Source of the DNA: Gemmatimonadaceae bacterium
GTDB taxonomy: Bacteria; Gemmatimonadota; Gemmatimonadetes; Gemmatimonadales; Gemmatimonadaceae
Reading direction: 5' to 3'
Assembly: GCA_051859245.1 (NCBI GenBank)
Contig: JBHYGA010000004.1
Coordinates: forward strand, 64,001-128,000
Length of the DNA: 64,000 bases
Shown here: positions 26,882-45,751 of the stretch, one piece after another
How positions within the stretch are numbered: position 1 is the first letter of the stretch
Layout of the letters: each line of letters begins with the position of its first letter
Notes under the pieces: generated by a model
The model's database searches: none
What the model was told of the DNA's origin: nothing
Seen by the model: only the letters and a program-made list of their open reading frames with translations
Translations under genes and position numbers: made by a program

Positions 26882-26885
26882 CGCA

Positions 26886-27055
26886 GTTCCCCTTTAAAAT
26901 CTTTTGCTCTTCTTCGTGTCTTCTGTGCCTTTGTGTCTTCCCTCCGCAGTTCTCCCAGCATTAGGAGCATCTGGGCAATGAAGCCTGACGCTCTCCTGGC
27001 GCGGAGAGAACTGCGGAGGGAAGACACAAAGGCACAAAGGACACAAAAACTGCGA
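26886..27055. repeat. Palindromic intergenic element, copy 1
   Basis: 31-bp perfect inverted arms 26924-26954/27006-27036 around a 51-nt core; homologous to 45567-45751; sits between convergent stop codons. Confidence 0.9.
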
Positions 27056-28252
27056 TCAAGAGACTGAACTTGAAAAGACGAAGAGGAGCACTGCGCCTGC
27101 GACTGAAGAGATCACTGCCCAGATCGGCGACGTGCGCGCGAGTACAAGCAGGCCGAGCAGCGCGAGTATTGCGTCGTTGATGTTGTGAACGGCACTCGTC
27201 AGTACTGGATCGTAAAGCGCCGCCGTGAGAATCCCCACCACGGCGGCGTTGATCCCGGCGATGACGCGCGTAGCGCGAGGAAAGGCGCGCAGTTGCGACC
27301 ACGCGGGTAACACCGCGATGAGCAGCAGAAATCCGGGTGTGAAGATGGCAAGTAGTGCCACCAGCGACGCAAGCACGAGATGCGCACCTGATGCGGCACC
27401 CATGTAGGCGGCCACGGAGAACAGTGGACCGGGAACGGCTTGCGCGGCGCCGTAACCGAGCATGAATGATTCGGCCGACATCCAACCCGTGTTGACCAGC
27501 GATTGTTCGAGCAGTGGCAGCACCACATGCCCACCGCCGAACACAAGCGCACCAGCGCGATAGAACGCCGCCGCGATACCGGGCACAGAAGGCGCGCTGG
27601 TCGACCAGAAGAGCGCCAGGCTCAAGCCAACCACAAAGAGCACCGCCGCCGTGCGTGATGTGCGGGGACTGATCGCGAGCGTTGGTGCGGACATGTCCGA
27701 ACCGTTTGCATCCGCGCACACGAGCCAGCCCGCAATCGCGCCAATCGCAATCACGAAAAGCTGCCCCCACGCGGTGCCCAGTTGCAGCACGATCGCTGCG
27801 GCAAGTATCGCGATGATCACTCGCTGCACATCGGGGGTCATGGTACGCACCATGCGCCACACGGCGTGTGCGACAATCACGACCGCTGAGATCTTCAGGC
27901 CGTGCAGCACGGCTGTACCGACTCCACGATCCAGCGCGGCTGCGTAACGCGCGAGCAACAACAGTGCCACAGCCGACGGCGTCGTGAACGCCACAAACGC
28001 GGCCAGCGCACCCTGCCATCCGGCACGCATCCAACCGATCGCAAACCCCAACTGGCTGCTCGCCGGACCCGGTAGCAACTGGCAGACCGCCAACAGTTGT
28101 GCAAACTGTGCGTCGGTAAGCCAGCGTCGCCGCACCACAAAGGCCTCGTGCATGTAGCCGAGGTGTGCGATGGGACCGCCAAACGACGTGAGTCCGAGCC
28201 GTAGAAACGCGACAAAGACGGAGCGAGCGGATTCCTGCGCAGGAACGTGCAT
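27056..28252 (-). CDS. chrA: Chromate efflux transporter (long-chain CHR)
   Basis: FLRLGLTSFGGPIAHLG, CQLLPGPASSQLG, LVFGGGHVVLP, AQAVPGPLF. Confidence 0.93.
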   Translation of the reverse strand: MHVPAQESARSVFVAFLRLGLTSFGGPIAHLGYMHEAFVVRRRWLTDAQFAQLLAVCQLLPGPASSQLGFAIGWMRAGWQGALAAFVAFTTPSAVALLLLARYAAALDRGVGTAVLHGLKISAVVIVAHAVWRMVRTMTPDVQRVIIAILAAAIVLQLGTAWGQLFVIAIGAIAGWLVCADANGSDMSAPTLAISPRTSRTAAVLFVVGLSLALFWSTSAPSVPGIAAAFYRAGALVFGGGHVVLPLLEQSLVNTGWMSAESFMLGYGAAQAVPGPLFSVAAYMGAASGAHLVLASLVALLAIFTPGFLLLIAVLPAWSQLRAFPRATRVIAGINAAVVGILTAALYDPVLTSAVHNINDAILALLGLLVLARTSPIWAVISSVAGAVLLFVFSSSVS

Positions 28253-28358
28253 CGCCAATGCTAGGTAATTGGCAGGGTCCGGCGCGAGGGGTACGTTCCT
28301 CGCACAACCGGAGTCCCCGACTTTCTCTCACACCGGCATTCGCCGCTACCGAGCTCGC

Positions 28359-28859
28359 ATGACTCGTCGAAATCAGATCGCTGCCCTGCTCACCGTGATT
28401 TCACTTGGCGTGTTAGTCCCAGGACTGACGCGACCGGTCCTCACCATTTCCGCATCGATCTCCATTCTTGGGAACACACGCGAGATCTTCCGTGAAACGC
28501 AGAGCATCGTGGAGAGCGTGCGCAATCTGTTTGAGTCGGGCAACGTGTTTGTCGGATCACTCATCCTGCTCTTCAGTATTCTGGTGCCACTGATCAAGGC
28601 CGTGCTGCTCGGCATAGTACTTTTGACCCAGAAACCCGCGACGCGCGATGCGCTGGCGCGTGTAGTGCGTTCAATCAGCAAGTGGTCCATGGCCGATGTG
28701 TTTGTGGTCGGCATTTTCATTGCGTTCATGGCCGCCAACGCGCTCGACAATCTCGATGCAGTGGCCGGAGAAGGGCTCTACTACTTTGCCGCGTATTGCC
28801 TGATCTCTAATCTGGCGTTTCAGTTCCTGAGTGTGCCGTCGACCATGCGAAACAGCTAG
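28359..28859 (+). CDS. pqiA: Paraquat-inducible protein A family (single domain)
   Basis: LFSILVP.IK, SKWSMADVFVV, GLYYFAAYC. Confidence 0.82.
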   Translation: MTRRNQIAALLTVISLGVLVPGLTRPVLTISASISILGNTREIFRETQSIVESVRNLFESGNVFVGSLILLFSILVPLIKAVLLGIVLLTQKPATRDALARVVRSISKWSMADVFVVGIFIAFMAANALDNLDAVAGEGLYYFAAYCLISNLAFQFLSVPSTMRNS

Positions 28860-28961
28860 TCGGAATTTTTTGTCTCCGTCTGTAGCCCGGAAATCGTCAC
28901 CGTGGACAGGCTGTTCGTCCCGTTCCGCTGGCAACTGTCCCATGGTTGAATCCTGAACGTG

Positions 28962-28988
28962 TGTCGGGCGTATCTGACTTCGTGCGCA
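28962..28988 (+). promoter_or_regulatory. Candidate ECF promoter TGTCG-N18-CGCA
   Basis: tgtcg ggcgtatctgacttcgtg cgca, 56 nt before ATG 29045; same motif at 29631 and 63709. Confidence 0.6.
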
Positions 28989-29044
28989 GAGTGATGTGCG
29001 TACGAAACCCCGACGCGTAAAGCATCCACATTCAGGAGGTCAGC

Positions 29045-29533
29045 ATGTTGTTTCTTACCCTTACGTCGGCCGCGATGATCGCCGCCACGCCAATCGCTCC
29101 CGTTTCGCCAAGCGTGCCGGTGTGCGCTCCGGCCGCAACCGCCAGCGTTGCCAACCCACATCTGTTGAACGCACGTGCTGCCATCGCGAAGGGCGATGTT
29201 GCCACGGCGCGTCGCGAGTTCCGCTTTGCAACCATCGTGGATCGCGATGAAGGATGCCTGCCGGTCGAATCGTCCAACGGTCTTGCGTCGCTGCTTTTTG
29301 CGCAGTCGCAAAAGATTGAGGCTGCCGAAGTCATGCAGGAACTCGCCGACGAGGCTGCAAAAAGCGGTGATATCAATGTAGAAGCGCGTGCGCTGGTTTC
29401 GGCCACCTGGCTGCGCCTTGAAGCCGGTGACAAGCTTTCCGCCAAAGTCGGCGTGCGTCGTCTCCGCGAGATCGCAAAAGAGAACGGACTGACGTCCGAC
29501 ACGCGTGCATTGCTGAAGGAAAGCCTCGGATGA
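29045..29533 (+). CDS. Secreted all-helical (TPR-like) hypothetical protein
   Basis: AGGAGG RBS; signal peptide; helical repeats (AIAKGDVATARREF, GDINVEARAL). Confidence 0.75.
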   Translation: MLFLTLTSAAMIAATPIAPVSPSVPVCAPAATASVANPHLLNARAAIAKGDVATARREFRFATIVDRDEGCLPVESSNGLASLLFAQSQKIEAAEVMQELADEAAKSGDINVEARALVSATWLRLEAGDKLSAKVGVRRLREIAKENGLTSDTRALLKESLG

Positions 29534-29630
29534 CACGCAACTCACCAGACGCGGCGCGCTGAGCTGTCGCTCGCTTGCCGCGTCTGGTGCGCGAGGGTGT
29601 AGCACGCCGCGAAAGTCGTCGCCGCTTACG

Positions 29631-29657
29631 TGTCGTGATGTGCAGGTGAAGGACGCA
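29631..29657 (+). promoter_or_regulatory. Candidate ECF promoter TGTCG-N18-CGCA
   Basis: tgtcg tgatgtgcaggtgaagga cgca, upstream of the TPR gene at 29726. Confidence 0.6.
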
Positions 29658-29725
29658 TCTCTGGTTGAGTTCTGTAGTGCACCGATTCTTCGTTTATGTG
29701 CACGTCATTTCCGCCAGAGGTTTGC

Positions 29726-31318
29726 ATGTCTGCCCTATCACTCCTGCTCGCGTTCACGCTATCGGTCACACCCGTCGACAGCGTACCACTCTACAACAAT
29801 CTCGGCGATCACGAATACGCGATCAGCACGAGCACCCCACTGGCCCAGAAATATTTCAATCAGGGCCTGCGTCTCTACTACGCGTTTAATCACGCCGAAG
29901 CCATTCGTGCGTTCCGCGAAGCTCAGCGCCTTGATGCTGGCTGCGCCATGTGCTTCTGGGGTGAAGCGTTGTCGTGGGGACCGAACATCAACTTGCCGAT
30001 GGACTCGGCGTCGCATGTCTCCGCTTTCGCTGCGATTGCGCGAGCGCGAGAAGCGGTTGGACCGTACACCACCGCAACGGAACGCGCGCTGATCAAGGCG
30101 CTCTCGGCGCGATACGATAGCTCGTCGCAGCGCACACGCGCAGTACTCGATTCCGCGTACACGAGCGCCATGCGCGATCTGAACAATCGTCTGCCGAACG
30201 ACCCGGAGATCGCGGTGCTGTACGCCGAGTCCGAGATGACGCTGCGTCCGTGGAGCTACTGGACCCCGAAGCGCACCCTGCAGCCCGGTATTGCGCGTGC
30301 TGTGAAGCAGCTGGAGAAGGTGATGCGCCAGAACAACCGGCATCCGGGCGCCTGTCACTTTTTCATTCACGCGGTGGAAGCCGTACAGCCGGAGCGTGCG
30401 GTCGCGTGCGCGGAGCGCCTCGCGTCACTGATGCCGGGCGCAGGACATCTCGTGCATATGCCCGGACACATCTACATCCGGGTGGGTCGCTACGCCGATG
30501 CGATCAGCGCCAATGAACATGCGGTACACGCCGACGAATCGTACATTCGCGATCAGCGACCGGGCGTGGGCATGTACACGATGGGTTACTACCCGCACAA
30601 CTACGATTTCCTGGCGTTTGCCGCATCCATGATGGGCAACAAGGCGCAGTCGATTGCCGCAGCTGACAAGCTGCGCGATCTCACGTCTGTCGAAATGATG
30701 AGCGTGCCGGGGATGGGCTTCCTGCAGCACCATGGAACGCGCGCGCTGCAAATGCGTGTACGCTTCGGTGCGTGGGCTGAGATTCTACAGGCACCAGCAC
30801 CGGATACCGCGCATCACCACGCGCGCGCGATGTGGCACTACGCGCACGGTCGTGCACTGGTCTCCACTGGTCAGATTGACGCCGCCGCGAAAGACCTCGC
30901 CGCCGTGCGGCGCATCATGGAGCTGCCATTGCTGCGCGACATGCGTCTTGAGTTCAATACGTCGTACACTGTGCTGCGCGTGGCCGAACAAGTGCTCGCC
31001 GGTACGATTGCCTCAGCGCGCGGCCAACACAACGACGCCGTCGCCTTCCTCACGAACGCCGTAGAGTACGAGGACGCCTTGAACTACGGCGAACCGCCGG
31101 AATGGTCGGTGCCAACACGTCAGGATCTCGGCGCCGCGTTGATGGCGGCTAATCGGCACGTCGAGGCCGCGCGCGTGTTCCGCGCCGACCTCGAACGGTT
31201 TCCGAAGAATGCCGCGTCAGTGACTGGGCTGGAGCAGGCACTCCGCGCCCAGGGACGCGTGGCTGAAGCTGATCATGTGAAGAAAACGGGTGACCACGTC
31301 CGCCTCAGAGCCAAGTAA
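29726..31318 (+). CDS. Secreted TPR-repeat protein
   Basis: AGAGG RBS; AQKYFNQGL..YAFNHAEA, WGPNIN, HPGACHFFIHAVE, GHLVHMPGHIY, YYPHNYDF, YGEPPEW. Confidence 0.85.
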   Translation: MSALSLLLAFTLSVTPVDSVPLYNNLGDHEYAISTSTPLAQKYFNQGLRLYYAFNHAEAIRAFREAQRLDAGCAMCFWGEALSWGPNINLPMDSASHVSAFAAIARAREAVGPYTTATERALIKALSARYDSSSQRTRAVLDSAYTSAMRDLNNRLPNDPEIAVLYAESEMTLRPWSYWTPKRTLQPGIARAVKQLEKVMRQNNRHPGACHFFIHAVEAVQPERAVACAERLASLMPGAGHLVHMPGHIYIRVGRYADAISANEHAVHADESYIRDQRPGVGMYTMGYYPHNYDFLAFAASMMGNKAQSIAAADKLRDLTSVEMMSVPGMGFLQHHGTRALQMRVRFGAWAEILQAPAPDTAHHHARAMWHYAHGRALVSTGQIDAAAKDLAAVRRIMELPLLRDMRLEFNTSYTVLRVAEQVLAGTIASARGQHNDAVAFLTNAVEYEDALNYGEPPEWSVPTRQDLGAALMAANRHVEAARVFRADLERFPKNAASVTGLEQALRAQGRVAEADHVKKTGDHVRLRAK

Positions 31319-31329
31319 CGGTCGAGTGC

Positions 31330-33648
31330 TTATTTGAACCGCATGCCATTGGGTGCAACAAAACCTTTGGTCGGGACCACCGGGGGTTTGGTTGCAACAG
31401 GTCTGGACACGGGCTTCGTCGCTGATGGCGACGGGGCCCGTTTTTCCGATGGGGCACCGGCGCTGGCGTCGGCAGGCGCCTTGCTGCGCATGCCCCCGCC
31501 ATCGGTACGCATACTGAGCGCAATGCGATTTCTCGGCAGATCAATGCTTTGCACCGTGACCTTCACGCGCTGTCCAACTTTGACGGCGTCGTTCGGATCC
31601 TTGATGTAGCGATCCGACAACTGGCTCACATGCACGAGCCCGTCCTGATGCACACCAATATCCACGAACGCACCAAACGCCACGATATTGGTGACGACTC
31701 CTTCGAGCACCATGCCCGGCACGAGATCTTGCGGCTTCTGCACATCGTCGCGGAACGCAGGCGGTTCAAAGGCACTGCGTGGATCGCGACCGGGCTTGCG
31801 CAGCTCATCGGCAATGTCGACCAGCGTCGGCATGCCGACATCGTCAGAGACGTACTGCGTGAGCTTGAGCTGTCCAACCAGCGCTTCGTTGCCCACGATC
31901 GATGCGACATCAACACCAAGATCCTTTGCCATGCGCTCAACCAGCGCGTAGCGCTCGGGGTGGACACCGCTCGCATCAAGCGGGTGTGCACCTCCGCGAA
32001 CGCGGAGAAATCCTGCCGCCTGCTCAAACGCCTTGGCACCCAGACGCGGCACTTCCTTGAGTTCAGCGCGTGATCGCAACCCGCCGCGTGAATCACGCAG
32101 CGACACAATCGCCTGTGCCAGCGACGGGCCAATGCCCGCCACATACGAAAGCAACGCGGCAGATGCCGTATTCACTTCTACGCCAACACGATTCACACAT
32201 GACATCACCGTGTCATCCAGTCGCGATTTCAAACGCGGTTGATTGACATCATGCTGATACTGACCCACGCCGATGCTCTTGGGATCGATCTTCACGAGCT
32301 CCGCGAGAGGGTCCTGCAAGCGACGGGCGATGGACACGGCGCCGCGCAACGACACGTCGAGCTCCGGGAACTCCGCGCGCGCGATGTCGCTGGCCGAGTA
32401 TACGCTGGCGCCCGCTTCGCTCACCACCACCACCTGCGGTACGGGCGGGTCGAGTTCACGCAACGACGCTTTGACCAGCGTTTCGGTTTCACGACTGGCC
32501 GTGCCGTTGCCAACAGCAATCAGGTCTGGCGTAAATCGCTGGACGAGCGCGCGCACCGCACCGGCAAATCGATCTTCCTGATGCAAGTACAAGGTGTCGG
32601 TGTGCACCAACGCACCCGTTGCACTCACCACCGCAACTTTCACGCCGGTACGAAAGCCCGGATCGAATCCGATCACGCGCTTCTCGCCTGCGGGTGCAGA
32701 CAACAGCAGCTGTTCCAGATTGCGTCCAAAGATCACGATCGCTTCATCATCAGCGCGCGTCTTGAGCTCAACCCGAAGCTCCACTTCAATCGCAGAAGCA
32801 AGCAGTCGTTTGTACGCATCGGCGGCAACCAGCGTGAGCTGCGTGTGCGCACGGCGCTCCTCCGTCAGTTCGCGCGTCAGACGCCCCACAATCTGCTCGG
32901 CCGGTGCCACGACTTGCCACTGCAGTTCACCCTCGGCTTCGCCGCGACGAATCGCCAGCATGCGATGGCTCGGAATAGTGCCCAGCGCTTCTTCAAAGTC
33001 GAAATAGTCCTTGAAGCGCGACGCATCGCTGGCCTTGCCCGTCATCACCACGCTTTTCACGCGGCCCTGCGCACGCGTGAGCTCGCGCACCCAGCCGCGA
33101 ACCACCGCGTCTTCGGCCACCTGCTCCGACAAAATGTCGCGCGCGCCCTGCAGCGCCGCAGCTACGTCCGGCACTTCGTCGTTCACGAACGTGGCCGCGA
33201 GTGCGTCGACCGCCGCGTCATCAACGGTTCCGTTCCACACTTGCTCCGCCAGCGGACCAAGTCCGCGTTCGCGCGCAATCATGGCACGCGTGCGCCGCTT
33301 GGGCTTGAACGGGAGATACAAATCTTCAAGCGCCTGCTTGCTGTCGGCTTTCAGGATGGTTGCCCGCAACGCGTCATCCAGCTTGCCCTGCTCCTCGATG
33401 CTGCGCAGAATCGCGGCGCGGCGATCCTCCATTTCGGTGAGGTATGCCGATCGCTCCTGCACGTCGCGCAGCTGTACTTCATCGAGCCCACCGGTTGCCT
33501 CTTTGCGATATCGGGCGATGAAGGGCAGCGTATTGCCTTCATCGAACAGCGCCAGCGTGTCCCGGACCTGCGCCGGCGTCAGCGAGAGTTCACGGGCCAC
33601 GCGCGCGACGATATCGGCGGCGGTTGGGGACGAAAGGACAGCGGGCAT
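31330..33648 (-). CDS. tex: Tex family RNA-binding transcriptional accessory protein
   Basis: TLPFIARYRKEATG, DPGFRTG.K, GASVYSAS, RRLQDPLAELVKIDPKSIGVGQYQHD; C-terminal S1 domain. Confidence 0.96.
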   Translation of the reverse strand: MPAVLSSPTAADIVARVARELSLTPAQVRDTLALFDEGNTLPFIARYRKEATGGLDEVQLRDVQERSAYLTEMEDRRAAILRSIEEQGKLDDALRATILKADSKQALEDLYLPFKPKRRTRAMIARERGLGPLAEQVWNGTVDDAAVDALAATFVNDEVPDVAAALQGARDILSEQVAEDAVVRGWVRELTRAQGRVKSVVMTGKASDASRFKDYFDFEEALGTIPSHRMLAIRRGEAEGELQWQVVAPAEQIVGRLTRELTEERRAHTQLTLVAADAYKRLLASAIEVELRVELKTRADDEAIVIFGRNLEQLLLSAPAGEKRVIGFDPGFRTGVKVAVVSATGALVHTDTLYLHQEDRFAGAVRALVQRFTPDLIAVGNGTASRETETLVKASLRELDPPVPQVVVVSEAGASVYSASDIARAEFPELDVSLRGAVSIARRLQDPLAELVKIDPKSIGVGQYQHDVNQPRLKSRLDDTVMSCVNRVGVEVNTASAALLSYVAGIGPSLAQAIVSLRDSRGGLRSRAELKEVPRLGAKAFEQAAGFLRVRGGAHPLDASGVHPERYALVERMAKDLGVDVASIVGNEALVGQLKLTQYVSDDVGMPTLVDIADELRKPGRDPRSAFEPPAFRDDVQKPQDLVPGMVLEGVVTNIVAFGAFVDIGVHQDGLVHVSQLSDRYIKDPNDAVKVGQRVKVTVQSIDLPRNRIALSMRTDGGGMRSKAPADASAGAPSEKRAPSPSATKPVSRPVATKPPVVPTKGFVAPNGMRFK

Positions 33649-33818
33649 GGGGCGTCGTGCGTAGGCAAGTCGAGTGAAGCAGGCGCGAGCACAGCCAGAA
33701 CTGCGCGCGCGGTGGCGAGGGCGCATATTGTGCCGAGCCGCTCGCGCGGGCAACGGCTTGACTTCCCCCGCGCATCGATCTTACCACGTCCGTATCCCAC
33801 CTCCGGAGAGTCATCCGC

Positions 33819-36419
33819 ATGCAGTTCCCGAGTTCGCCGAGCGCCATTCGCGCCTCGCGTTTTCCGCGTTTTACCACCTCGGCCGCACTCGCGGCGATGT
33901 GCGCAGCGTTCGCTCTGCCGGTCGCCGAGTCGCACGCGCAACCGCCATCGCTGCTGCCACCGCCCACACAAACGGTGCGTGTCAATCGCGCGAACTGGAC
34001 GCTGGCGGATCGTTTCAGCGTCGCGAACATGCGCAATCTCGCCTTCAGCACATCAGTGGCGCCTCGCTGGCTCGGTGAAACGGATTCGATGTTCTACAAC
34101 TGGCGCGACAAGAATGGCGGCACGTTCTACCTCGTAGTACCGACCACGCGTACCAAGCGTCCGCTCTTCGATCATGTGAAGCTCGCCGAAGAACTCTCGC
34201 GTTTGCATCGCAAACCGTACGAACCGGGAAAGTTGCCATTCACCACGCTCAACTTCACGAAAGACCACAAGAAGATTCGTTTCCAGGTGGATTCCACGCG
34301 CTACGAGTGGAATCTGGCCGCAGAAACGCTCTCCAGCCTTGGGATCTGGCGTCGCGACTCGGTAGCCGTGGACGAAGAACGCGAGCAGGGCGGTGGTGGT
34401 GGCGGACAAGGTGGACCCGGCGGCGCTCCCGAGTTCCGCAACTTTTCGCCCGACAGCACCGCGTTCGCCTTCGCGCGCGACCACAACCTGTTCGTGGTGG
34501 ACGTGAAAACCGGCGACACCGTGCAGCTGAGCACCGACGGTGCGAAGGACTACAGCTTTGGTTTTCGCGATACATCGACCACCAATCAACAACAGCAGCA
34601 GGACGACGATCAGCAGGACAATCAGAACACGCAGGGACAGCAAAGCCGCAGCCGCGATCCACGCGTGCGCGCCAGCGTGAGCTGGTCGCCGGATTCGCGT
34701 TCGTTCACCGTGCAGCGCAACGATTCGCGCAAAGTGAAGGAATTGTATTTGGTGAACGTACTGTCGAACCCGCGGCCAACGCTGAGCTCGTACAAGTACT
34801 CCATGCCGGGCGAAGCAGATGTGAGCCAGCAGGAGCTGTTCGTGTACACGCGCGGCGAGAAGACGCTGCGCAAGGTGCCCGTGGACAAGTGGAAAGATCA
34901 GCGCGTGAGCAACGTGCACTGGCCTGTCAAATCGGAAACGTTCCGACTGGTGCGACGCGATCGGTTGCAGCGCAACATGGAGCTGGTGGAAGTGAACACG
35001 GCCACGTTGGCCATGAAAACGCTGCTGACCGAGTCCGTTGAGAATGCGTTTCTTGAAATTCAGCCGGTGCGTTACGTCACGCGTGGTGGCGATTTTGTCT
35101 GGTTCTCCGAGCGCAGCGGCTGGGGTCACTACTATCTGTACAGTCATGATGGTACGTACAAGCGTCCGCTGACCAGCGGCATGTGGCGCGCCGAGAATGT
35201 GGTGGAGCAGGACACGGTGCGCGGCACGATGTTCATCAGTGGTGTAGGACGCGAGCCGGGACCGAACCCGTACCTGCGTCATACCTACCGCATGAACGGT
35301 GACGGTTCCGGCTTCACGCATGTCACGCCTGGCGCCTACGATCACGCAACGCGCGTGTCACCCACCAAGCGATTCATTGTTGACAACTACTCGCGCTCCG
35401 ACACGATTCCCGTTGCCGTCGTGCGCGATGCGGCCACGGGTCGCGTGGTGATGCCGCTGGAAGTAATGGATGACTCGCGCATTCGTGAAATGGGCTGGTC
35501 GCCACCAGTGCCGTTCACCACCAAAGCCGCCGATGGAACCACCGACATCTACGGCAACATGTGGAAGCCCGCCGACTTTGATTCCACCAAGAAGTATCCG
35601 ATCATTGCGTACGTGTATCCGGGTCCGCAAACTGAACAGGTCACAAGCGGATTCAGCACCGGCGGTGTGATGCAGCAGTTGGCGCAGCTGGGCTTTGTCG
35701 TGATTCAGATTGGAAACCGTGGTGGCACACCGCAGCGCTCCAACGCCTATCACAGCTTCGGCTACTACAACCTGCGCGACTACGCGTTGGCTGACAAAAA
35801 GACGGGTATCGAGCAGCTCGCCGCACGCCATTCATTCATCGACATTGATCGCGTGGGCATTTACGGTCACTCCGGTGGTGGTTTCCTTACGGCGGCCGCA
35901 CTCATGTTGCCGCCGTACAATGATTTCTTCAAAGTGGGTGTGTCGTCGGCCGGCAATCACGACAACAACATTTACAATCAGAACTGGAGTGAGCAGCACC
36001 ATGGACTGCGCGTGATCACCGAGCGTCGCGACACCACCCAGCGTGGTCGCACGAATGGCGGGAACGGTGGCGCGCGCACGCAGACGCAGACGCAGGGACG
36101 CAACGGCGCACGTGTCGTCGCAGTGGATGATTCCACGCGCTACGAAATCCGCGTACCCACGAACGCGGAGCTCGCGGAGAACCTGAAAGGCAAGCTGCTG
36201 CTCGTGCACGGCGACATGGACAACAACGTGCACCCCGGCAATACCATTCGTCTCGTCGACGCGCTCATCAAAGCCAACAAGCGCTTCGACATGATGATGC
36301 TGCCGGGCCAAGCGCACGGCTTCGGGCCCATGCAGCCGTACTTCAATCGCATGCTCATGGAATACTTCGCCGAGCACCTCATGGGCGATTACTACCGCGC
36401 CACGGCCGAGATTCGCTAA
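33819..36419 (+). CDS. S9B dipeptidyl-peptidase IV-like peptidase, secreted
   Basis: DPP IV N-terminal propeller; YPGP, GHSGGG, HGDMDNNVHP, QAHGF. Confidence 0.92.
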   Translation: MQFPSSPSAIRASRFPRFTTSAALAAMCAAFALPVAESHAQPPSLLPPPTQTVRVNRANWTLADRFSVANMRNLAFSTSVAPRWLGETDSMFYNWRDKNGGTFYLVVPTTRTKRPLFDHVKLAEELSRLHRKPYEPGKLPFTTLNFTKDHKKIRFQVDSTRYEWNLAAETLSSLGIWRRDSVAVDEEREQGGGGGGQGGPGGAPEFRNFSPDSTAFAFARDHNLFVVDVKTGDTVQLSTDGAKDYSFGFRDTSTTNQQQQQDDDQQDNQNTQGQQSRSRDPRVRASVSWSPDSRSFTVQRNDSRKVKELYLVNVLSNPRPTLSSYKYSMPGEADVSQQELFVYTRGEKTLRKVPVDKWKDQRVSNVHWPVKSETFRLVRRDRLQRNMELVEVNTATLAMKTLLTESVENAFLEIQPVRYVTRGGDFVWFSERSGWGHYYLYSHDGTYKRPLTSGMWRAENVVEQDTVRGTMFISGVGREPGPNPYLRHTYRMNGDGSGFTHVTPGAYDHATRVSPTKRFIVDNYSRSDTIPVAVVRDAATGRVVMPLEVMDDSRIREMGWSPPVPFTTKAADGTTDIYGNMWKPADFDSTKKYPIIAYVYPGPQTEQVTSGFSTGGVMQQLAQLGFVVIQIGNRGGTPQRSNAYHSFGYYNLRDYALADKKTGIEQLAARHSFIDIDRVGIYGHSGGGFLTAAALMLPPYNDFFKVGVSSAGNHDNNIYNQNWSEQHHGLRVITERRDTTQRGRTNGGNGGARTQTQTQGRNGARVVAVDDSTRYEIRVPTNAELAENLKGKLLLVHGDMDNNVHPGNTIRLVDALIKANKRFDMMMLPGQAHGFGPMQPYFNRMLMEYFAEHLMGDYYRATAEIR

Positions 36420-36446: not shown

Positions 36447-36483
36447 AACGCGGCCGGTTGTCTGATAGACAACCGGCCGCGTT
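36447..36483 (+). terminator. Intrinsic terminator hairpin
   Basis: Perfect 17-bp stem aacgcggccggttgtct-gat-agacaaccggccgcgtt about 28 nt after the stop; only a short T tail. Confidence 0.7.
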
Positions 36484-38501: not shown

Positions 38502-39631
38502 ACAACCGTCGTGATTTTCTGCGCGCGTCCGCTCTGCTTGGCGGCGCCGCGCTCACCCGTGGTCTGCTGCCGCGCGTCGATCTGTTGAACGTTGTGCCAA
38601 CGCGCCCTGCAGCACGCGCACTCAAAGTGCTGGTACTTGGTGGCACCGGATTTATCGGACCGCACCTAGTGCGTCATCTCGTCGCGCGCGGGCACACGGT
38701 GTCCATTTTCACACGCGGCCGACGAGAAGCCGAACTGCCACAGTCCGTAGAGCGCCTCGTGGGCGACCGCGACGCGAAAGACGCCAACGGAAATCTCGCC
38801 GGCGACTACACCGCGCTGGCCGATCGCCGCTGGGATTTTGTATTCGACGACTCGGCGAACAACCCCGCCTGGGTGCAGCAATCCACGGAAGTACTGCGCA
38901 ACGCGGTCACGCGCTACCTGTTCGTATCGTCCACCGGCGTGTTCTATCCGTATCGCACCGTTGACATTACCGAGTCAACGCCGGTGCGCATGAGCATGAC
39001 GGAAGAAGCAGCGGACTCCTTCGGCGTCAACAAGTCCATCGCCGAAGCACGCACACGAGACGTATTTGGAGATCGCGCAATTGTGGTGCGTCCCACGTAC
39101 ATCGTCGGTCCTGGTGATGGCAGCGATCGATTTACGTACTGGCCCGTTCGACTTGCGCGCGGCGGCGAGGTGCTCGCGCCCGGCAAGCCTACTGATCGTT
39201 CACAGTTCATTGACGTGCGCGATCTGGCCGAGTTCATGGTGCACATTGCGGAGACCGGCGCAACGGGCACGTTCAATGTGGCGGGCCCCAGGGACACACT
39301 GACCTTCCCCGAGTTTCTCAACGCCGCGCGCGCCGCGATCAGTACACCAAGCACTCTCACGTGGGTGGACGACTACGATTTCCTCACGGAACAGAAGTTG
39401 ACCTTCGCCTGTCCGTGGGGTTTGCCGCGCGGCGATGTGCTTGGCATGATGGCCATCAGTCCGGCCAAGGCGATCGCCGCAGGCCTTACGTATCGCCCAA
39501 TCGAACGCACCGTGCGAGATACGCTGGCGTGGTGGAATACGCTCCCCGCTGATCGTCAGGCGCGCAATCGATTTGTGCTCACGGCGGAGCGGGAAGCCGA
39601 GATCCTCGCGGCGTGGAAGGCGCGGCGCTGA
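38498..39631 (+). CDS. NAD-dependent epimerase/dehydratase family protein with Tat signal
   Basis: NNRRDFLR; VLVLGGTGFIG; RPTYIVGPGD..DRFTYWP; QFIDVRDLA; ATGA overlap with the DUF885 gene. Confidence 0.88.
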   Translation: MNNRRDFLRASALLGGAALTRGLLPRVDLLNVVPTRPAARALKVLVLGGTGFIGPHLVRHLVARGHTVSIFTRGRREAELPQSVERLVGDRDAKDANGNLAGDYTALADRRWDFVFDDSANNPAWVQQSTEVLRNAVTRYLFVSSTGVFYPYRTVDITESTPVRMSMTEEAADSFGVNKSIAEARTRDVFGDRAIVVRPTYIVGPGDGSDRFTYWPVRLARGGEVLAPGKPTDRSQFIDVRDLAEFMVHIAETGATGTFNVAGPRDTLTFPEFLNAARAAISTPSTLTWVDDYDFLTEQKLTFACPWGLPRGDVLGMMAISPAKAIAAGLTYRPIERTVRDTLAWWNTLPADRQARNRFVLTAEREAEILAAWKARR

Positions 39632-39772
39632 CCCGTCAGCACGCCAAAGGTACCCGCCTCAACCAGCGTGGTCGCTGCCGCGTATTTTTCAGGCGGTGCA
39701 TTTTGCCGCAGGCCTGACCTCATGGGCCGTGAGCCTCTGAAGTCGCTGTCCACTCATTTGGAGTCGCTGTCT

Positions 39773-41914
39773 ATGGTTCCGTCCGCTCTGCAGACGCTAG
39801 CTCACGCACGCGCCGCCCGCAGCCGCATTTACGCGGCGCTCCTGATGTCCGCAGCCGCGACGGCGTTACCGGCGGGTCTGCGTGCGCAGGACCGCCTGCC
39901 CTTCATGCCGGGCTACGCGCAGTTTCAGAAAATGCGCGGCGAGATCCCGAACGCGGTGCGTTCCGGCGCCATCACGCCAGTGTGGGAAGCAGACGGTCGC
40001 AGCTTCACCTACACCGCCGACGGCAAGCGCATGCGCTTTGACATCGCGTCGCGGTCGGCATCAGAAGCTCCGGCTGCCGGCGCGAATGGTGGTGCACGTG
40101 GCCCGGGTGGCCCGCGGGTGGAACGCGGACGTCAGGCCGAAGTCGCCTACACAGCGGACAGTGCACGCCGCGCGGTGCACCGTGATCGCAATCTGTACGT
40201 GCTCAATAAAGACGGAAGCGATGAACGCGCCGTGACGACCGATGGCAGCGCAGACAAGCGCATCAAGTACGGCACCGCCAGCTGGGTGTACGGCGAAGAA
40301 CTGGCACAAACCACCGCGATGTGGTGGTCACCTGACGGCAGCAAACTCGCGTACTATCGTTTTGATGAATCGCCGGTGCAGGACTATTTCCTGCAGCTGT
40401 CGCAGACAAAGATTCAGAGCACCATGGATACCGAAGCGTATCCCAAAGCGGGCAGCGCCAATCCGGTGGTTGATCTGTTCGTGTACGATGTTGCCACGAA
40501 CAAAAGTGTGCGCATTGATGTGCGCAGTGGCGCACCGTTTACCGACAGCACGGTTGGCCACTACGTCTATCGTGTGGGTTGGACACCAGACGGCAGCGCG
40601 ATCACGTTCAATCGCACCAACCGCCGGCAGAACGTGATGGAGTTTACAAGCTGCAGTCCAGCGAGCGGCGCGTGCCGTGCGATCGTGCGCGAAGAGTGGC
40701 TCGCCAGCTGGACCGACAATCGCCCCGACATTCGCTGGCTGGCCGACAATCAGCGTTTCATCTGGACATCAGAGCGCAACGGCTTCAAGAACTACTATCT
40801 GTATCACATGGACGGGCGGTTGCTCTCAACGCTCACGTCACACCCGTTCGAAGTGGCCGGCATTACGCGCGTGGATGAAAAAGCCGGACAGATGTGGTAC
40901 ATGGCGCGCAGCGGTGACAATCATATGAAGCTGCAGTTGCACCGCGTGTCGCTCTCGGGCAAGAACGACGTGCGTCTCACTGATCCGGCGTTCAATCACA
41001 CGGTCAATGTTTCGCCCGACGGCAAATACTTTGTTGATGTCGCACAAACGCACAACACGCCACCGGTGTCATCTGTTCGTGATGCCAACGGCAAGCTGGT
41101 CAAAGAACTGCTGCAAAGTGATGTGAGCAAAGCCACGGCACTCGGACTCAAGCCGGTGGAAATGTTCACCTTCAAAGCGGCTGACGGCGTGACCGAACTG
41201 CACGGCATGTTGCACAAGCCGAGCAACTTTGATCCGAGCAAGAAATATCCGGTGCTCGTGAGTGTGTACGGCGGCCCCGCCACCAACGGTGCACGCGAAA
41301 CGTTCAGTACACCCAACGCACTCACCGAATACGGTTTCCTTGTGCTCACGCTCGATGCACGCAGCGCGGCCGGTCGTGGCAAGAAATTCCTCGACGCGAT
41401 CTACGAAAGACTCGGCACCGTGGAAATTGACGACTTCGCGGCCGGCGTTCGCGAAATCGCCAAGCGTCCGTACGTTGATGGATCACGCGTTGGCGTGTTC
41501 GGCACATCGTACGGCGGTTACGCATCGGCCATGGCCCTGCTGCGTCACCCCGATGTATTTCACGCGGCCGCAGCCAGCAGCTCGGTCACCGATTGGCGTC
41601 ACTACGACACCATCTACACCGAACGCTACATGTACACGCCGCAGGCCAACGCGGCCGGTTACGATGCCGGTTCGGCGATGACCTACGCCGACAAGCTCAA
41701 AGGCCGTCTCATGATTTTCTACGGCACGGCCGACAACAACGTGCACCCGTCGAACAGCATGCAGCTCATCCAGGCCCTGCAGCGCGCCGGCAAGAGCTTC
41801 GATGTGCAGGTGGGACCGGATGTTGGCCACGCGGGACTGTCGCAGCCGCGCATGATGGAGTTCTTTATTGAACACCTCGTGCTGCCGCGCGCCGGCAACA
41901 CCGCCAGCAACTAG
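39773..41914 (+). CDS. S9B dipeptidyl-peptidase IV family peptidase, secreted
   Basis: WVYGEEL, WWSPDG, YPKAG, VYGGP, GTSYGG, DW..YDTIYTERYM, GTADNNVH. Confidence 0.93.
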   Translation: MVPSALQTLAHARAARSRIYAALLMSAAATALPAGLRAQDRLPFMPGYAQFQKMRGEIPNAVRSGAITPVWEADGRSFTYTADGKRMRFDIASRSASEAPAAGANGGARGPGGPRVERGRQAEVAYTADSARRAVHRDRNLYVLNKDGSDERAVTTDGSADKRIKYGTASWVYGEELAQTTAMWWSPDGSKLAYYRFDESPVQDYFLQLSQTKIQSTMDTEAYPKAGSANPVVDLFVYDVATNKSVRIDVRSGAPFTDSTVGHYVYRVGWTPDGSAITFNRTNRRQNVMEFTSCSPASGACRAIVREEWLASWTDNRPDIRWLADNQRFIWTSERNGFKNYYLYHMDGRLLSTLTSHPFEVAGITRVDEKAGQMWYMARSGDNHMKLQLHRVSLSGKNDVRLTDPAFNHTVNVSPDGKYFVDVAQTHNTPPVSSVRDANGKLVKELLQSDVSKATALGLKPVEMFTFKAADGVTELHGMLHKPSNFDPSKKYPVLVSVYGGPATNGARETFSTPNALTEYGFLVLTLDARSAAGRGKKFLDAIYERLGTVEIDDFAAGVREIAKRPYVDGSRVGVFGTSYGGYASAMALLRHPDVFHAAAASSSVTDWRHYDTIYTERYMYTPQANAAGYDAGSAMTYADKLKGRLMIFYGTADNNVHPSNSMQLIQALQRAGKSFDVQVGPDVGHAGLSQPRMMEFFIEHLVLPRAGNTASN

Positions 41915-41963
41915 AAAACGAGACCCGTGTGACCGCCGGACGATCTCAGGGGTTATCACTGCC

Positions 41964-42518
41964 ATGACCCCCACCGATGCCCAGATCGTTCGGCGCGTCC
42001 TGGGCGGTGACACGGAGGCCTTCCGGGGCCTCGTGGACCGCTACCACGACGACGCCGTGCGATACGCCACCCACCTGCTCGGCGACCACGCCGAAGCGGA
42101 AGACGCCGTTCAGGACACGTTCCTGCGCGCCTACCGCTACCTGGCGAGCTACCAGGAGCAGGACAAGTTTCGGGCGTGGCTCTGGCGCATTCTCGTGAAT
42201 CGCTGCCGTACGCGCCTCTCCGACCGTGCGCGACGCCCGGAACCGCGCGATTCGGCCGTCATCACCCAGCTCGTCGACGCCAACGCCGCCGCCCCTGACC
42301 ACGACCTCGACCGCGCCTTTTTGCGCGACGAGCTCGCTCAGGCGCTCGCCACCCTGCCCGCGGATCAACGCGAGGCGGTGGTGTTGCATTTCACGGAGGG
42401 GCTCTCCTATCCGGAAATGTCCGCCGTGACCGGCACCGGCGTGTCGGCGCTCAAAATGCGGGTCCATCGGGCCTGCGATCGACTGCGTACTCTGCTCTCG
42501 GATGTGATCCATGGCTGA
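41964..42518 (+). CDS. ECF RNA polymerase sigma factor
   Basis: GDTEAF..LVDRY, EAEDAVQDTFLRAY, FRAWLWRILVN; region 4 LP.DQREA..L...EGLSY.EM. Confidence 0.93.
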   Translation: MTPTDAQIVRRVLGGDTEAFRGLVDRYHDDAVRYATHLLGDHAEAEDAVQDTFLRAYRYLASYQEQDKFRAWLWRILVNRCRTRLSDRARRPEPRDSAVITQLVDANAAAPDHDLDRAFLRDELAQALATLPADQREAVVLHFTEGLSYPEMSAVTGTGVSALKMRVHRACDRLRTLLSDVIHG

Positions 42519-43200
42519 CGCCAATACGCCCCTGCTTCCGACCGAGCTTGAGGCCGCCTTCCGGCAGGCCGCGCCGGTTGATCAGGCCCGACGCGCCCGT
42601 TCGATCGACGCAATCATGGCGACGGTCACCACGCTACCCGCCCCGCGCCGCTGGTCATTGCCACCGTCCATGACCCGCTGGCGTCGCCGTGGCATGCTGG
42701 CGCCCGCCGGTGGCCTGGCCGTGACCGCCCTGATGGCCCTCTGGATGGGCGTCACTGCCCTCACCGATGTCTTCCAGCGGGGCTCATCGGCCGTGCTGGC
42801 CCGGGCCGAGTTCATTGGGGATACCGTGATCGCCCGTCTGGTCCCGGTGGTGGACGAAACACGTCTCGTGCGGGCGGGGGGCATGGCAGCCGCCCTCCAT
42901 GATACTTTGTACGACACGATGCGCATCGTCCGGTTCGCCCTGCGGGCACCGGAGGCGTCGCAGGTTACGTTGGTCGGCGCGGCGCCTGCCAATGTACCCG
43001 ATGCGCAGGAGTCCCGGATTTCGGTGGCGCGCGACATTGCCAGCGGACTCTGGGAAATGCGGACCGTACTGCCTCGCGATGCGGTGGCCAGTGCATTCGC
43101 ATTCGTGGTGGACGACGCGCAACGGATTCCGGTGCGCTCTCCAATGACTGTGCACTCCGTGTGGACACGCGAACAGGCATTGGGCGACACCGCGTTCTGA
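42511..43200 (+). CDS. Putative anti-sigma factor, single TM with degenerate CBM48/isoamylase early-set domain
   Basis: Overlaps the sigma stop; TM segment; VRFALRAPEASQVTLVG...GLW...AFVVD pattern. Confidence 0.7.
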   Translation: MADANTPLLPTELEAAFRQAAPVDQARRARSIDAIMATVTTLPAPRRWSLPPSMTRWRRRGMLAPAGGLAVTALMALWMGVTALTDVFQRGSSAVLARAEFIGDTVIARLVPVVDETRLVRAGGMAAALHDTLYDTMRIVRFALRAPEASQVTLVGAAPANVPDAQESRISVARDIASGLWEMRTVLPRDAVASAFAFVVDDAQRIPVRSPMTVHSVWTREQALGDTAF

Positions 43201-43229
43201 TCGCCCTTCTTCGTCTTCGTTCCTACAAC

Positions 43230-45566
43230 ATGTCTGAAACTGCTTCGCTCTGGCGCGGGCGCACGGCGCTCCTGGCCGCGCTCTCAGCGCTCACGCTTCT
43301 TATTGGCTACGGCGACCTGTGGCGCGGTGGCACCTCGATCTCGGCGCTGTGTCTTGCCATTGCATACGCTGGGTTGATTCCGGCCACGCTGATGTCGTTT
43401 GGCAAAGGTGAGTCAACAACACCCCGCGCCGACGAACGCTTCGCGAATGCGCCGTGGATACCAGCCGGCGTTGTTGCGCTCGCTTTGTTTCTGCTCTACG
43501 CGTTTACGCTCGGGCCGAGCACGGCCATGTGGGACACGAGCGAGTTCATTACGGCGGCCAAAGTTTTTGGTGTACCGCATCCGCCGGGCAACCCGGTGTT
43601 CGTCATTCTGGCGCACGCGTTTGGGTTGTTGCCGCTGCCTGTTGAGTATGGCGCACGCATCAATCTGCTCGCGGCCGTAACGAGCGCACTTTCGGCTGGT
43701 CTGTGGTTCCTGGTGGCAGATGGTGTGATGCGCACGTGGATCACGATCAAGTGGGCGCGCATCATGGCGTCGTCCACGGCCGTGCTCATCGGTGGTACCG
43801 CGTTCACGGTTTGGAATCAGAGCGTCGTGAACGAAAAAGTGTACTCGGTGGCGCTGCTCGGAGTCGCGGCCGTGAGCTGGCTCATGTTGCGCTGGAGCGA
43901 CTCACCTGACAAACCATCATCTGATCGTTACCTGCTCACAGCAGCCTATCTGATCGGACTCGGCTACGCGAATCATCCGGCCGGTTTTCTTCCGCTGCCC
44001 GCGGTTGGCTTGATTGTTCTGATGCGTCAGCCGTCGGTGCTGCTGCGCTGGCGCTTGCTGCTTGGTACGCTTGCGGTGGCGATTGTTGGCCTCACGCCGT
44101 TTGTTGTCATGCCGATTCGCGCGGCGCACGAACCGTACCTCAACAGCGGTGGTGTGTCAGCGTGTACCGACGGCATCAATGTGTCGTGTACGTTCAGCGC
44201 GGAGACATATCGTCGCGTGAAGGCGCACATTGACCGCGAACAGTATTCCGGTCACAACGTAGCGGAACGCAAGGCGCCGCTTACCGCGCAGTTCGGCATG
44301 TTCTGGCTGTACTTCAAGTGGCAGTGGTTCCGCGACGCGTACGGACAGGCACCGCAAGCACAGTCGTTGCTCGCGCTGCTCTTCTTCACGCTCGGCATTG
44401 TTGGCGGTGTGACACACTTCAGACGAGACCGACGAACATTCTGGTACGTGGGCGGACTCATGTTTACGCTCACGATCGCGCTCGTTGTGTATCTCAATTT
44501 CAAGTACGGACATTCGCAGGCGCCGGAACTTGGCAACAGCGTTGACCGCGAAGTGCGTGATCGAGACTACTTCTACTTGTGGACGTTCTCTCTGTGGGGA
44601 CTGTGGGCCGCGCTCGGACTCACCACACTGTGGGCATCGCTCGCTTCGCGACTGGGTGGTACCGGCGCTGTTTCAGATCGTGGACTTCGGTTGGCCACGC
44701 CGATCCTGTTGCTGGCCCTAATTCCTCTCGTTACCAACGCGATTGACGCGCCGCGCAACAAACACACGTTCACACGTGAATGGGCGCGCGACCTGCTCAA
44801 CTCGGTGGAGCCGTACGGCATTCTCATCACGAACGGCGACAACGATTCATTCCCGCTCTGGTACGCACAGGCGGTTGAAGGTGTGCGTCGTGACGTGATG
44901 GTTGCTGTCGTGCCGTACCTCGGCACCGAGTGGTACGCCCATCAGTTGCAGAACCGCAAGATCGAACCGTACGACAAGGAAGCAGGCCCGGCGCGTTATC
45001 GCGATCGTGAGTGGCCCATGCCAACCAAGCAGCTGTTGCCGCTCACGCGCGAAGAGATCGACGGCATTCCCCCGGTCGTCGGCTTGTCACAGCCACAGCG
45101 TTTTGTGCACGACGGCATGGACGTGACGATCAATCTCGACATGCTCATGCGCGACGAGCAGCTCGTGCTCTACATGATCAAGCACTCGTATCCCGAGCGC
45201 GGCATGTTCTTCTCGTTCGGCGGCTACGCATCACGCCTCGGCTTCGGCGACCACATTGTGAACTACGGTCTCGCGCAGAAGCTGGTGAGCACGCGGCCGG
45301 AACCGTCGCTGGCCTTCATCCCGCTGCGCGGCAACGAAGTGCTCGACGTGGAAGCCACGAAATCATTGTGGTCCGAGTACCGCGGTATGGACGCGCTGAT
45401 CGCCGAAAACGGTTGGGTCGACGACGCCTCGGCCGGCATTCCGGTGCTCTACCTGATCACTGGCCAATACCTCGCCGGTTCACTCGAAGCCGCCGGCGAC
45501 TCCATCGCCGCCGAAAAGATCCTCGCCAAGGTCGACACGATGGCGCAGCGTTCACGGATTCGATAA
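43230..45566 (+). CDS. DUF2723 / TMEM260-like GT-C glycosyltransferase (putative protein O-mannosyltransferase)
   Basis: WDTSEF, GVPHPPGNP.F, W.QS...E.VY, REVRDRDYFY, NGDNDSFPLWYAQ.VEGVRRDV; many TM segments. Confidence 0.85.
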   Translation: MSETASLWRGRTALLAALSALTLLIGYGDLWRGGTSISALCLAIAYAGLIPATLMSFGKGESTTPRADERFANAPWIPAGVVALALFLLYAFTLGPSTAMWDTSEFITAAKVFGVPHPPGNPVFVILAHAFGLLPLPVEYGARINLLAAVTSALSAGLWFLVADGVMRTWITIKWARIMASSTAVLIGGTAFTVWNQSVVNEKVYSVALLGVAAVSWLMLRWSDSPDKPSSDRYLLTAAYLIGLGYANHPAGFLPLPAVGLIVLMRQPSVLLRWRLLLGTLAVAIVGLTPFVVMPIRAAHEPYLNSGGVSACTDGINVSCTFSAETYRRVKAHIDREQYSGHNVAERKAPLTAQFGMFWLYFKWQWFRDAYGQAPQAQSLLALLFFTLGIVGGVTHFRRDRRTFWYVGGLMFTLTIALVVYLNFKYGHSQAPELGNSVDREVRDRDYFYLWTFSLWGLWAALGLTTLWASLASRLGGTGAVSDRGLRLATPILLLALIPLVTNAIDAPRNKHTFTREWARDLLNSVEPYGILITNGDNDSFPLWYAQAVEGVRRDVMVAVVPYLGTEWYAHQLQNRKIEPYDKEAGPARYRDREWPMPTKQLLPLTREEIDGIPPVVGLSQPQRFVHDGMDVTINLDMLMRDEQLVLYMIKHSYPERGMFFSFGGYASRLGFGDHIVNYGLAQKLVSTRPEPSLAFIPLRGNEVLDVEATKSLWSEYRGMDALIAENGWVDDASAGIPVLYLITGQYLAGSLEAAGDSIAAEKILAKVDTMAQRSRIR

Positions 45567-45751
45567 TCCCCTAAGTTCTTTGCAGTTTTCGTGTTCTTCG
45601 TGCTTTTGTGTCCTTCCCGCCGCAGTTCCCCCAGCATTAGGAGCATCTGGGCTTAGCAGCCAGACGCTCTCCTAGTGCAAGGGAACTGCGGCGGGAAGGA
45701 CACAAAAGCACGAAGGACACGAAGAAGAGCAACAGACTTTTTTTGGGGAAC
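45567..45751. repeat. Palindromic intergenic element, copy 2
   Basis: 35-bp perfect inverted arms 45596-45630/45681-45715 around a 50-nt core whose first 22 nt are identical to copy 1; between convergent stop codons. Confidence 0.9.

Follow-up and report, generated by a model that had tools for sequence, protein, structure and literature searches.

As far as its published account goes, the Ssn-NTS/SRM system ties a small single-domain nuclease gene spatially to a hairpin-forming repeat, which is also dispersed gene-less in the genome, and many enzyme–repeat pairs carry their own variants (PMC11893778). In the accessible text on REPIN-RAYT systems, extragenic doublets inverted around a variable spacer (bioRxiv 10.1101/2021.07.10.451892) accompany a single-copy monophyletic enzyme gene that lies in one extragenic space alongside its own repeat population; inheritance is vertical and turnover slow. 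Head–head and tail–tail dimers, common heterodimers and variable spacers are described for the GTAG/CGTC REP elements in the part of that paper available (PMC3733652). The repeat family presented here shares all of these traits, and it also has the terminal inverted repeats and the lack of coding capacity of MITEs. The GxxExxY/PDDEXK_3 proteins, one of which adjoins this family, are widespread; in the accessible part of the survey, they are of unknown function and underwent multiple transfers (PMC3424549).

The window elements and the repeat family

The window, i.e., the whole stretch of 64,000 nucleotides that was analysed, contains two copies of the element, both without an assigned strand. 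Copy 1 (26882..27055, 174 nt) fills the entire gap between an S9 prolyl oligopeptidase family gene (24596..26881, plus strand) and a chromate transporter family gene (27056..28258, minus strand). Copy 2 (45567..45756, 190 nt) likewise fills the gap between a TMEM260-like gene (43161..45566, plus strand) and a DUF4394 gene (45757..46740, minus strand), so the placement between convergent stop codons reported in the earlier note was confirmed, as were the perfect inverted arms of 31 bp and 35 bp and the four substitutions and one indel separating the copies.

Both copies have the inside-out layout (A), in which the arms point head-in. Copy 1, which has an ortholog in the closest relative of the source genome (G002), carries its X end on the left and its Y end on the right. 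It consists of an X-type arm end, a family-wide terminal variant (26902..26915, minus strand), and, on the plus strand, the pyrimidine-rich left perfect arm of 31 bp (26924..26954), a core of 51 nt formed by two arm extensions facing each other (26955..27005), the purine-rich right perfect arm of 31 bp with CACRAA words (27006..27036) and a Y-type arm end (27045..27053). A TGAAG word is located at 26979..26983 (plus strand), at offset −34 relative to the arm anchor. Copy 2 has the Y end on the left and the X end on the right; its parts, all on the plus strand, are the left perfect arm of 35 bp (45596..45630), a core of 50 nt (45631..45680), the right perfect arm of 35 bp, where the starts of the CACRAA words are spaced 8 and 9 nt (45681..45715), and an X-type arm end (45721..45744) followed by a run of seven T.

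The 22-mer with which both cores begin is present without mismatches at 26955 and 45631; no third site exists in the window at up to three mismatches, and two matches were obtained in none of 100 shuffles. It is not part of a separate core, as had been thought, because it continues the family arm, and in the opposite layout (B, arms head-out) it sits outside the hairpin. The description of the stems as fully compensated is valid within the maximal perfect arms only, since copy 1 has unmirrored differences just outside them. As for the proposed hairpin of the core itself, folding of the core alone as DNA gave a modest signal for copy 2 (z −2.4), whereas core 1 is unstructured (z +1.7). Among four DNA sequencing runs, coverage of the element came solely from the probable source run.

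In the source genome (G000), the family comprises 22 loci, namely eight of layout A, eleven of layout B and three partial ones, which bears out the suggestion of a dispersed, non-autonomous REPIN-like family without coding capacity. One of 23 BLAST loci, C4:293k, was left out because of its other arm class. The arm is about 85–110 nt long, contains three CACRAA words and is itself non-palindromic (z from +0.25 to +1.18 for four single arms folded as DNA), which speaks against membership among the REP elements. Doublets, some of them damaged, account for 19 of the 22 loci, every one intergenic, and the X/Y combination of ends was found in 14 of 16 intact doublets. Every copy sits behind at least one stop codon. 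The neighbouring genes (38 proteins and the four window neighbours) are functionally unrelated; one of them encodes endonuclease I, apparently incidentally. Exact arm words did not occur in metagenome contigs (two patterns) or in viral contigs.

Searching with the window element gave 58 matches in G000, 47 in G002, two in G014 and none in 38 other genomes. Other species of the genus have hairpins of their own: the G004 hairpin has 33 matches in G004, 25 in G006, ten in G005, seven in G002, two in G000 and one each in G013 and G003; the G013 hairpin has 34 in G013, three in G005 and one in G003; and all 61 matches of the G003 hairpin are in G003. Since the loci and genomes are related, such counts are not independent. 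At the 3′ end of the TMEM260-like gene, G004, G005 and G013 carry their own hairpin classes, and one orthologous site is occupied by the window-element class in G000 and by a different class in G002.

Both window sites are filled in G002, and the copy 1 site is empty in G006, G005 and G003, which means that the element was gained or lost there at some time. The empty sites of farther relatives are too diverged to show target-site duplications, and no clean insertion site was found. The ortholog-site check in G002 covered five of seven unmatched class-1 loci, two of them uninformative (C4:971k and C8:11k were left out); it revealed neither a target-site duplication nor any locus cleanly filled in one of G000 and G002 and empty in the other, and the differences resemble collapse or deletion with remnants. 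The MITE-like jumping with clean empty sites that had been envisaged thus gained no support from the closest relative.

The origin of the matched stems

The core of copy 1 has the same orientation in its G002 ortholog, whereas that of copy 2 is inverted there (alignment score of 80 flipped and 25 unflipped); flipped cores were found in two of six orthologous G000/G002 pairs. Mirrored columns make up 10 of 276 in orthologous pairs. Single-arm changes outnumber mirrored ones (27 versus 10), and over 14 doublets, 42 non-consensus positions are in one arm only and 21 in both. Arms differ less within loci than between loci (3.0 versus 4.8; permutation p 0.0001), and the arm variant longer by 1 nt is found in 20 of 31 G002 arms versus 3 of 37 G000 arms. 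G-U pairs are not favoured in the stems; at tandem loci, a small sample, nine A-C and five G-U mismatches were counted on the transcribed strand.

Taken together, these observations mean that copying at the DNA level explains the apparently compensated stems better than selection on RNA, and the matched stems are likely kept by DNA copying, not by RNA function. The earlier proposal of arm-to-arm conversion is borne out by the counts of single-arm and mirrored changes and by the orthologous pairs. This calls for caution in RNA discovery, as long stems can owe their seemingly perfect covariation to DNA copying, which was exposed here by core inversion and species-wide sweeps.

The GxxExxY gene beside recR

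The link to GxxExxY genes suggested in the earlier note proved correct: one copy of the family sets in where an intact GxxExxY gene beside recR has its stop codon. The product belongs to the PD-(D/E)XK nucleases (PDDEXK_3; 114 bits versus cut-offs of 35 and 22 for TIGR04256 and PF13366) and retains the E, D and E-x-K residues; in 43 alignment rows, E31, Y34 and D71 are invariant, and E81 and K83 are conserved in at least 90%. The TGAAG word of this copy, at offset −33, contains the stop codon of the gene, and the offset of the word is shared by 7 of 39 arms, among them five of the eight A cores.

The recR-side gene is present in a fixed position at 8 of 13 genus loci, and these genes form one clade (support 98/90) in a tree without the loci of G021 and G014. 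In all four species tested, a B copy of the species' own arm class, its genome-wide repeat, lies behind it. The orthologs share 52–63% identity with the G000 protein, and behind each lies a different repeat class, so that cognate specificity could be assayed directly in vitro, as it was for Ssn-NTS. Across phyla, inverted flanks (score of at least 15) were found at 53 of 74 GxxExxY loci versus 1 of 131 control windows. From the repeat side, CACGAA-class words start a GxxExxY gene or its remnant at 2 of 23 loci. GxxExxY genes occur in 11 of 14 other genus genomes, and the arm class of copies 1 and 2 occurs only in G002 and as two weak matches in G014. No GxxExxY gene was found in G002 despite its 47 matches to the element; as its contig breaks off within the recR-side hairpin and also lacks the upstream block (an assembly gap), this absence is uninformative and does not count against a link.

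Among the observations that count against a nuclease partnership are the narrow spread of this arm class compared with that of GxxExxY in the genus, the arm pair at the recR-side gene, which is downstream only, not on both sides, and contact with a GxxExxY gene at only 1 of 22 family loci. A search lying outside supplements and most subscription journals found no published description of a GxxExxY–repeat association.

A model of the protein based on 43 aligned sequences (the query and 42 of 79 loci) reached a pLDDT of 91.9, compared with 47 for a single-sequence model, and gave modest matches to the PD-(D/E)XK fold (best Z 8.1); by predicted fold, Cas4 and Holliday-junction resolvases come closest. 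A search by sequence found no relative of GxxExxY with a solved structure. GxxExxY proteins could become a source of small nucleases that act site-specifically on single-stranded DNA or hairpins.

Explanations and known systems

The best explanation, to which we assign a probability of roughly 0.6, is that this gene-less inverted-doublet family of 22 loci is kept uniform by DNA-level copying and is a target of the GxxExxY nuclease. Layout B would be the gene-flanking arm pair after loss of the gene, and layout A would be the same unit turned inside-out, made where two arms come together at their outer ends. GxxExxY would nick or cut the long hairpin or cruciform. Template-switch repair could then copy the partner arm, giving mirrored changes and core inversion, or another locus, giving genome-wide sweeps; alternatively, repair could collapse the hairpin or, rarely, seed a new 3′-end site. 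The copies are old and mostly inherited, and effects on transcript ends, if any, would be secondary. A bolder version, which we offer tentatively, sees in GxxExxY a domesticated nuclease, specific for hairpins or cruciforms, which rewrites and spreads its own species-specific repeats, the third enzyme-plus-repeat replicator after RAYT and Ssn and one of the PD-(D/E)XK type; the A copies of the window might then be circular permutations arising via a rod-shaped circular or tandem intermediate.

Alternatively, the host's own replication and repair, through template switching at long inverted repeats and ordinary gene conversion, could suffice to maintain and reshape the family; GxxExxY would then be a passenger or the ancestral origin of the arms, now inactive on them. 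Template switching is described, in the accessible text, as needing no dedicated enzyme to produce mirrored changes and inverted loops (PMC8794818), most sites were inherited and decay through collapse, and although an internal stop disrupts the second GxxExxY gene of G000, the neighbouring repeat class keeps 14 triple words. We consider this unlikely, however, as the recR-side gene is intact at the eight of 13 loci with the dominant class of the species behind it in the four tested, and passive decay hardly accounts for whole-class replacement at orthologous sites and the cross-phylum link.

Functional RNA hairpins, acting as bidirectional terminators or 3′ stabilisers under purifying selection on pairing, would fit the setting of the loci, 13 of 22 of which are between convergent genes and none between divergent ones (40 of 274 each in the background, by heuristic gene calls). 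They would also fit the very stable RNA folds (z of −10.8 and −14.6 for copies 1 and 2; equally stable shuffles 0 of 200) and the T run after copy 2. Nevertheless, Rfam (4227 families, gathering score) has no match in the window, and terminator and promoter scans made no call on either element, the T run included. The structured RNA of the earlier note is improbable, given that cores are inverted between relatives, mirrored indels occur, A-C exceeds G-U in the small tandem sample, and arm sequence is fully replaced between species at one gene end, with unrelated genes flanking the family. Another alternative is that a DDE or Y1 (RAYT) transposase mobilised the family as a classical MITE or REPIN, GxxExxY being a chance neighbour. 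This would match the size, terminal inverted arms, dispersion and intergenic position, and the copy 1 site lacking the element in three relatives points to past gain or loss. This is highly improbable: the monomer is non-palindromic, neither target-site duplications nor clean empty alleles were seen against G002, and none of the 38 neighbouring proteins and four window neighbours is a transposase. The suspected RAYT/HUH partner was not found, PF01797 (Y1_Tnp) having no match in the 99.87% complete genome and matching in 6 of 14 controls. The IVS four-helix-bundle protein was rejected as a partner: the genome has one gene for it, and the repeat on its flanks is a different, unrelated one.

Compared with the accessible descriptions of known systems, the family differs from each. 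Template switching at hairpins, in which mirrored changes and loop inversion are simultaneous, as here, was described for short rRNA stems with loops of 4–8 nt, whereas cores of about 50 nt are flipped here (PMC8794818), and it leaves copying between loci unexplained. The recR-side gene clearly belongs to GxxExxY/PDDEXK_3; the available text on this family mentions no associated repeats, and its genes are scattered elsewhere but fixed at two loci in this genus (PMC3424549). The GTAG/CGTC REP monomer is a stem-loop, while the arm here forms none and has no terminal GTAG/CGTC tag by eye; Gemmatimonas and CACGAA do not occur in that paper (PMC3733652). The REPIN monomer is a palindrome of about 14 bp, which the arm lacks, and REPINs are about 100 nt long with hundreds of copies, whereas the present elements measure 170–220 nt and number in the tens; the single-locus, monophyletic and vertically inherited enzyme is here GxxExxY, not RAYT. 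Ssn (SsnA), for which domestication was proposed (PMC11893778), is a GIY-YIG nuclease that cleaves ssDNA bearing its repeat site-specifically, whereas GxxExxY is a predicted PD-(D/E)XK (PDDEXK_3) nuclease, and no GIY-YIG nuclease is among the 38 neighbouring proteins. The Ssn-NTS/SRM repeat is a short palindrome with hundreds of copies, while about 22 copies exist here of a long asymmetric arm with three spaced words that pairs only as a doublet. By analogy, the family appears to work like REPIN-RAYT or Ssn-NTS, being a member of neither.

Two palindromes and their repeat family

Both palindromic elements of the window are present as the earlier note described them. Copy 1 (26882..27055) has perfect arms of 31 bp (26924-26954 and 27006-27036) around a core of 51 nt, and copy 2 (45567..45756) has perfect arms of 35 bp (45596-45630 and 45681-45715) around a core of 50 nt. 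The 22-mer common to both copies occurs exactly twice in the window and in 0 of 100 shuffles. Each element wholly occupies the gap between two convergent stop codons, and the flanking genes are unrelated. The window also contains a CCACCG-rich low-complexity repeat in four copies (1719-1753, 2306-2364, 4847-4881), the minus strand of which codes for a glycine-rich sequence.

The elements belong to a real repeat family. Arm searches of the genome (G000; 4.7 Mb, 11 contigs) yielded 23 loci, one of which was set aside as another arm class. The 22 remaining loci comprise eight with the head-in layout of the window copies (A), eight intact and three damaged copies with outward-facing arms and an A/T-richer spacer (B), and three partial copies. 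The family unit is a single arm bearing three CACRAA words, the starts of which are 8 and 9 nt apart; a lone arm does not fold (z +0.25 to +1.18). The 22-mer, previously taken for the start of the core, proved to be a continuation of the arm, lying within the core in A and outside the hairpin in B. The other end of the arm is variant X or Y, with one of each in 14 of the 16 intact doublets. The same arm thus has the 22-mer stretch inside or outside, with X and Y ends paired, which suggests that A and B are a single unit turned inside out by some inferred route. According to heuristic gene calls, convergent genes flank 13 of the 22 loci and tandem genes the other nine, with no locus in a divergent gap, while convergent and divergent gaps each account for 40 of 274 in a 400 kb background. 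No shared function was found among the genes neighbouring the repeats. Ahead of a B copy on contig C4 (C4:359700-359770), a 16-nt stretch from the outer extension of the arm occurs in five tandem copies.

A third arm class, with CGCGAA words, has X and Y ends in common with the others. It is minor in G000 (C4:293556-293730, C5:189562-189647), dominant in the genomes G004 and G006, and present in the closest relative, G002, at loci L095, L101, L105, L111, and L233; at L101, it is nested within a core of the window class. The sole IVS four-helix-bundle gene of G000 (TIGR02436; C1:950k, L237:1190-2080) is flanked on each side by a long hairpin that belongs to a further, separate repeat family.

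The GxxExxY gene beside recR

Two GxxExxY genes and no Y1/RAYT gene were found in G000. The intact gene (C5:414187-414675) adjoins recR and ends within a B copy, where the arm word TGAAG contains its TGA stop. Of 39 arms, seven have this word at offset -33/-34, including window copy 1 and five of the eight A cores. At the recR loci of G013 (L039) and G003 (L037), the GxxExxY frame likewise enters a hairpin, and the repeat supplies the C-terminal residues and the stop there too. In the intact protein, the family motif is conserved along with the D and E-x-K residues, and its predicted structure (pLDDT 91.9) matches PD-(D/E)XK nucleases. Cas4 SSO0001 and Hjc resolvases lead the Foldseek matches (best E 3.8e-4); VIA-align gave Z 8.1 and rmsd 3.1 over 95 aligned residues with BpuSI, and Z 7.6 and rmsd 4.1 over 103 with SSO0001. 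These modest scores point to the fold of the modelled protein, not to its function. The second gene (C5:417028-417369, L001) has one internal stop and adjoins a different repeat class with CGCAGAG words, of which contigs C4 and C5 hold 14 triple-word sites. Within the genus, the orthologs of this second gene make up another clade with a fixed locus (support 96/83).

Of 41 related genomes, 24 gave a GxxExxY match; one genome in this count is unpublished, and none of the claims made here depends on it. Across phyla, both flanks were available for 74 of 79 GxxExxY loci, and inverted flanks scoring at least 15 were found at 53 of these 74 loci, many of them related, against 1 of 131 control windows. 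A search from the repeat side, covering 401 genomes of the phylum, detected the degenerate triple word in 13. At two of the 23 triple-word loci outside G000, a GxxExxY gene or remnant starts at the word, while several more loci are B-type doublets without the gene.

The recR-side gene is present at 8 of 13 genus loci and forms one clade (support 98/90). The hairpins behind it differ in arm sequence among species and have similar X and Y ends. Each tested hairpin matches chiefly in its own genome, the matches not being equivalent to copy numbers: the window element in G000 (58), G002 (47), G014 (2), and none of 38 other genomes; the G004 hairpin in G004 (33), G006 (25), G005 (10), G002 (7), G000 (2), G013 and G003 (1 each), and none of eight others; the G013 hairpin in G013 (34), G005 (3), and G003 (1); and the G003 hairpin in G003 alone (61). 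At site 2, behind the TMEM260-like gene, G004, G005, and G013 have differing hairpin classes, which in G004 and G013 are those behind their own recR-side genes; in G006 the hairpin is absent. At this 3' end, the hairpin is complete in G004 (C220, L076), whereas the closely related G006 (C71, L077) has the outer ends only, a near-precise gain or loss. No GxxExxY gene was detected in G002, whose contig breaks off within the hairpin next to recR and lacks the block upstream of it.

Inheritance and rewriting of the copies

The flanks in G002 are ~73-96% identical, and the element or its collapsed remnant is found at 15 of 22 sites, including both window sites. The copies are old and mostly inherited, with slow turnover. 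Two of the six orthologous A pairs have an inverted core, namely window copy 2 (score 80 vs. 25) and C1:716k (84 vs. 48). Among 276 arm columns of these pairs, 27 have a change in a single arm and 10 a change shared by both arms of one species; by a hand estimate, chance would give about one both-arm coincidence. Within G000, partner arms differ at 3.0 positions, compared with 4.8 between loci (p 0.0001), and 21 non-consensus positions are common to both arms while 42 are not. An arm variant one base longer has swept through G002 (20 of 31 arms, compared with 3 of 37 in G000, the arms of one locus not being independent), and this genome-wide difference points to copying between loci.

The site 1 element is absent in G006 (a 26-nt gap), G005, and G003. 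At C4:359k, G000 has the window class in B layout, whereas the CGCGAA class occupies this site in G002, in A layout. The hairpin is absent from G002 at C4:1057k, where an outer inverted remnant persists. Some G000 remnants are full copies in G002. These site differences among genomes indirectly suggest that the family may be mobile. In G002 (C37:30025-31558, L098), a 383-codon open frame is enclosed by a pair of B-type copies that are nearly identical and point the same way. Since different genes lie between partial arms at the same site in G000 (C8:51.1-53.8k), the repeats may promote gene exchange or loss.

A proposed mechanism and known systems

We consider the family to be the repeat partner of GxxExxY, with a probability of roughly 0.6. 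The data show the association with the gene, the inheritance of the copies, the core flips, and the sweeps. In the proposed mechanism, the enzyme would bind and cut the hairpin or cruciform; repair would then copy, flip, or collapse the repeat copies, and might occasionally seed new ones. Maintenance by the host alone seems rather unlikely. Template switching is reported (PMC8794818) to yield mirrored changes and loop inversions; on the other side stand the inverted flanks at GxxExxY loci.

Selection on a transcribed RNA is improbable. The folding z-scores are -10.8 for copy 1 and -14.6 for copy 2, and an Rfam search with the window elements gave no matches. At tandem loci, the transcribed strand has nine A-C and five G-U mismatches, so RNA-type tolerance is not apparent in this small sample. 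A classical transposase, with which the site differences might also agree, is the least probable of these explanations. The site comparisons with G002 revealed neither a clean empty allele nor a target duplication.

PF13366, the family of GxxExxY, is listed as of function unknown in PMC3424549. The literature searches, which reached neither supplementary files nor the bulk of subscription papers, turned up no description of GxxExxY-linked repeats. REPs are already known to occur in head-head, tail-tail, and heterodimer arrangements (PMC3733652). As far as the corresponding excerpts describe them, Ssn-NTS (PMC11893778) and REPIN-RAYT (10.1101/2021.07.10.451892) work in a similar way to the window family, which is a member of neither: its enzyme differs from that of Ssn-NTS, and both its enzyme and its monomer structure differ from those of REPIN-RAYT.
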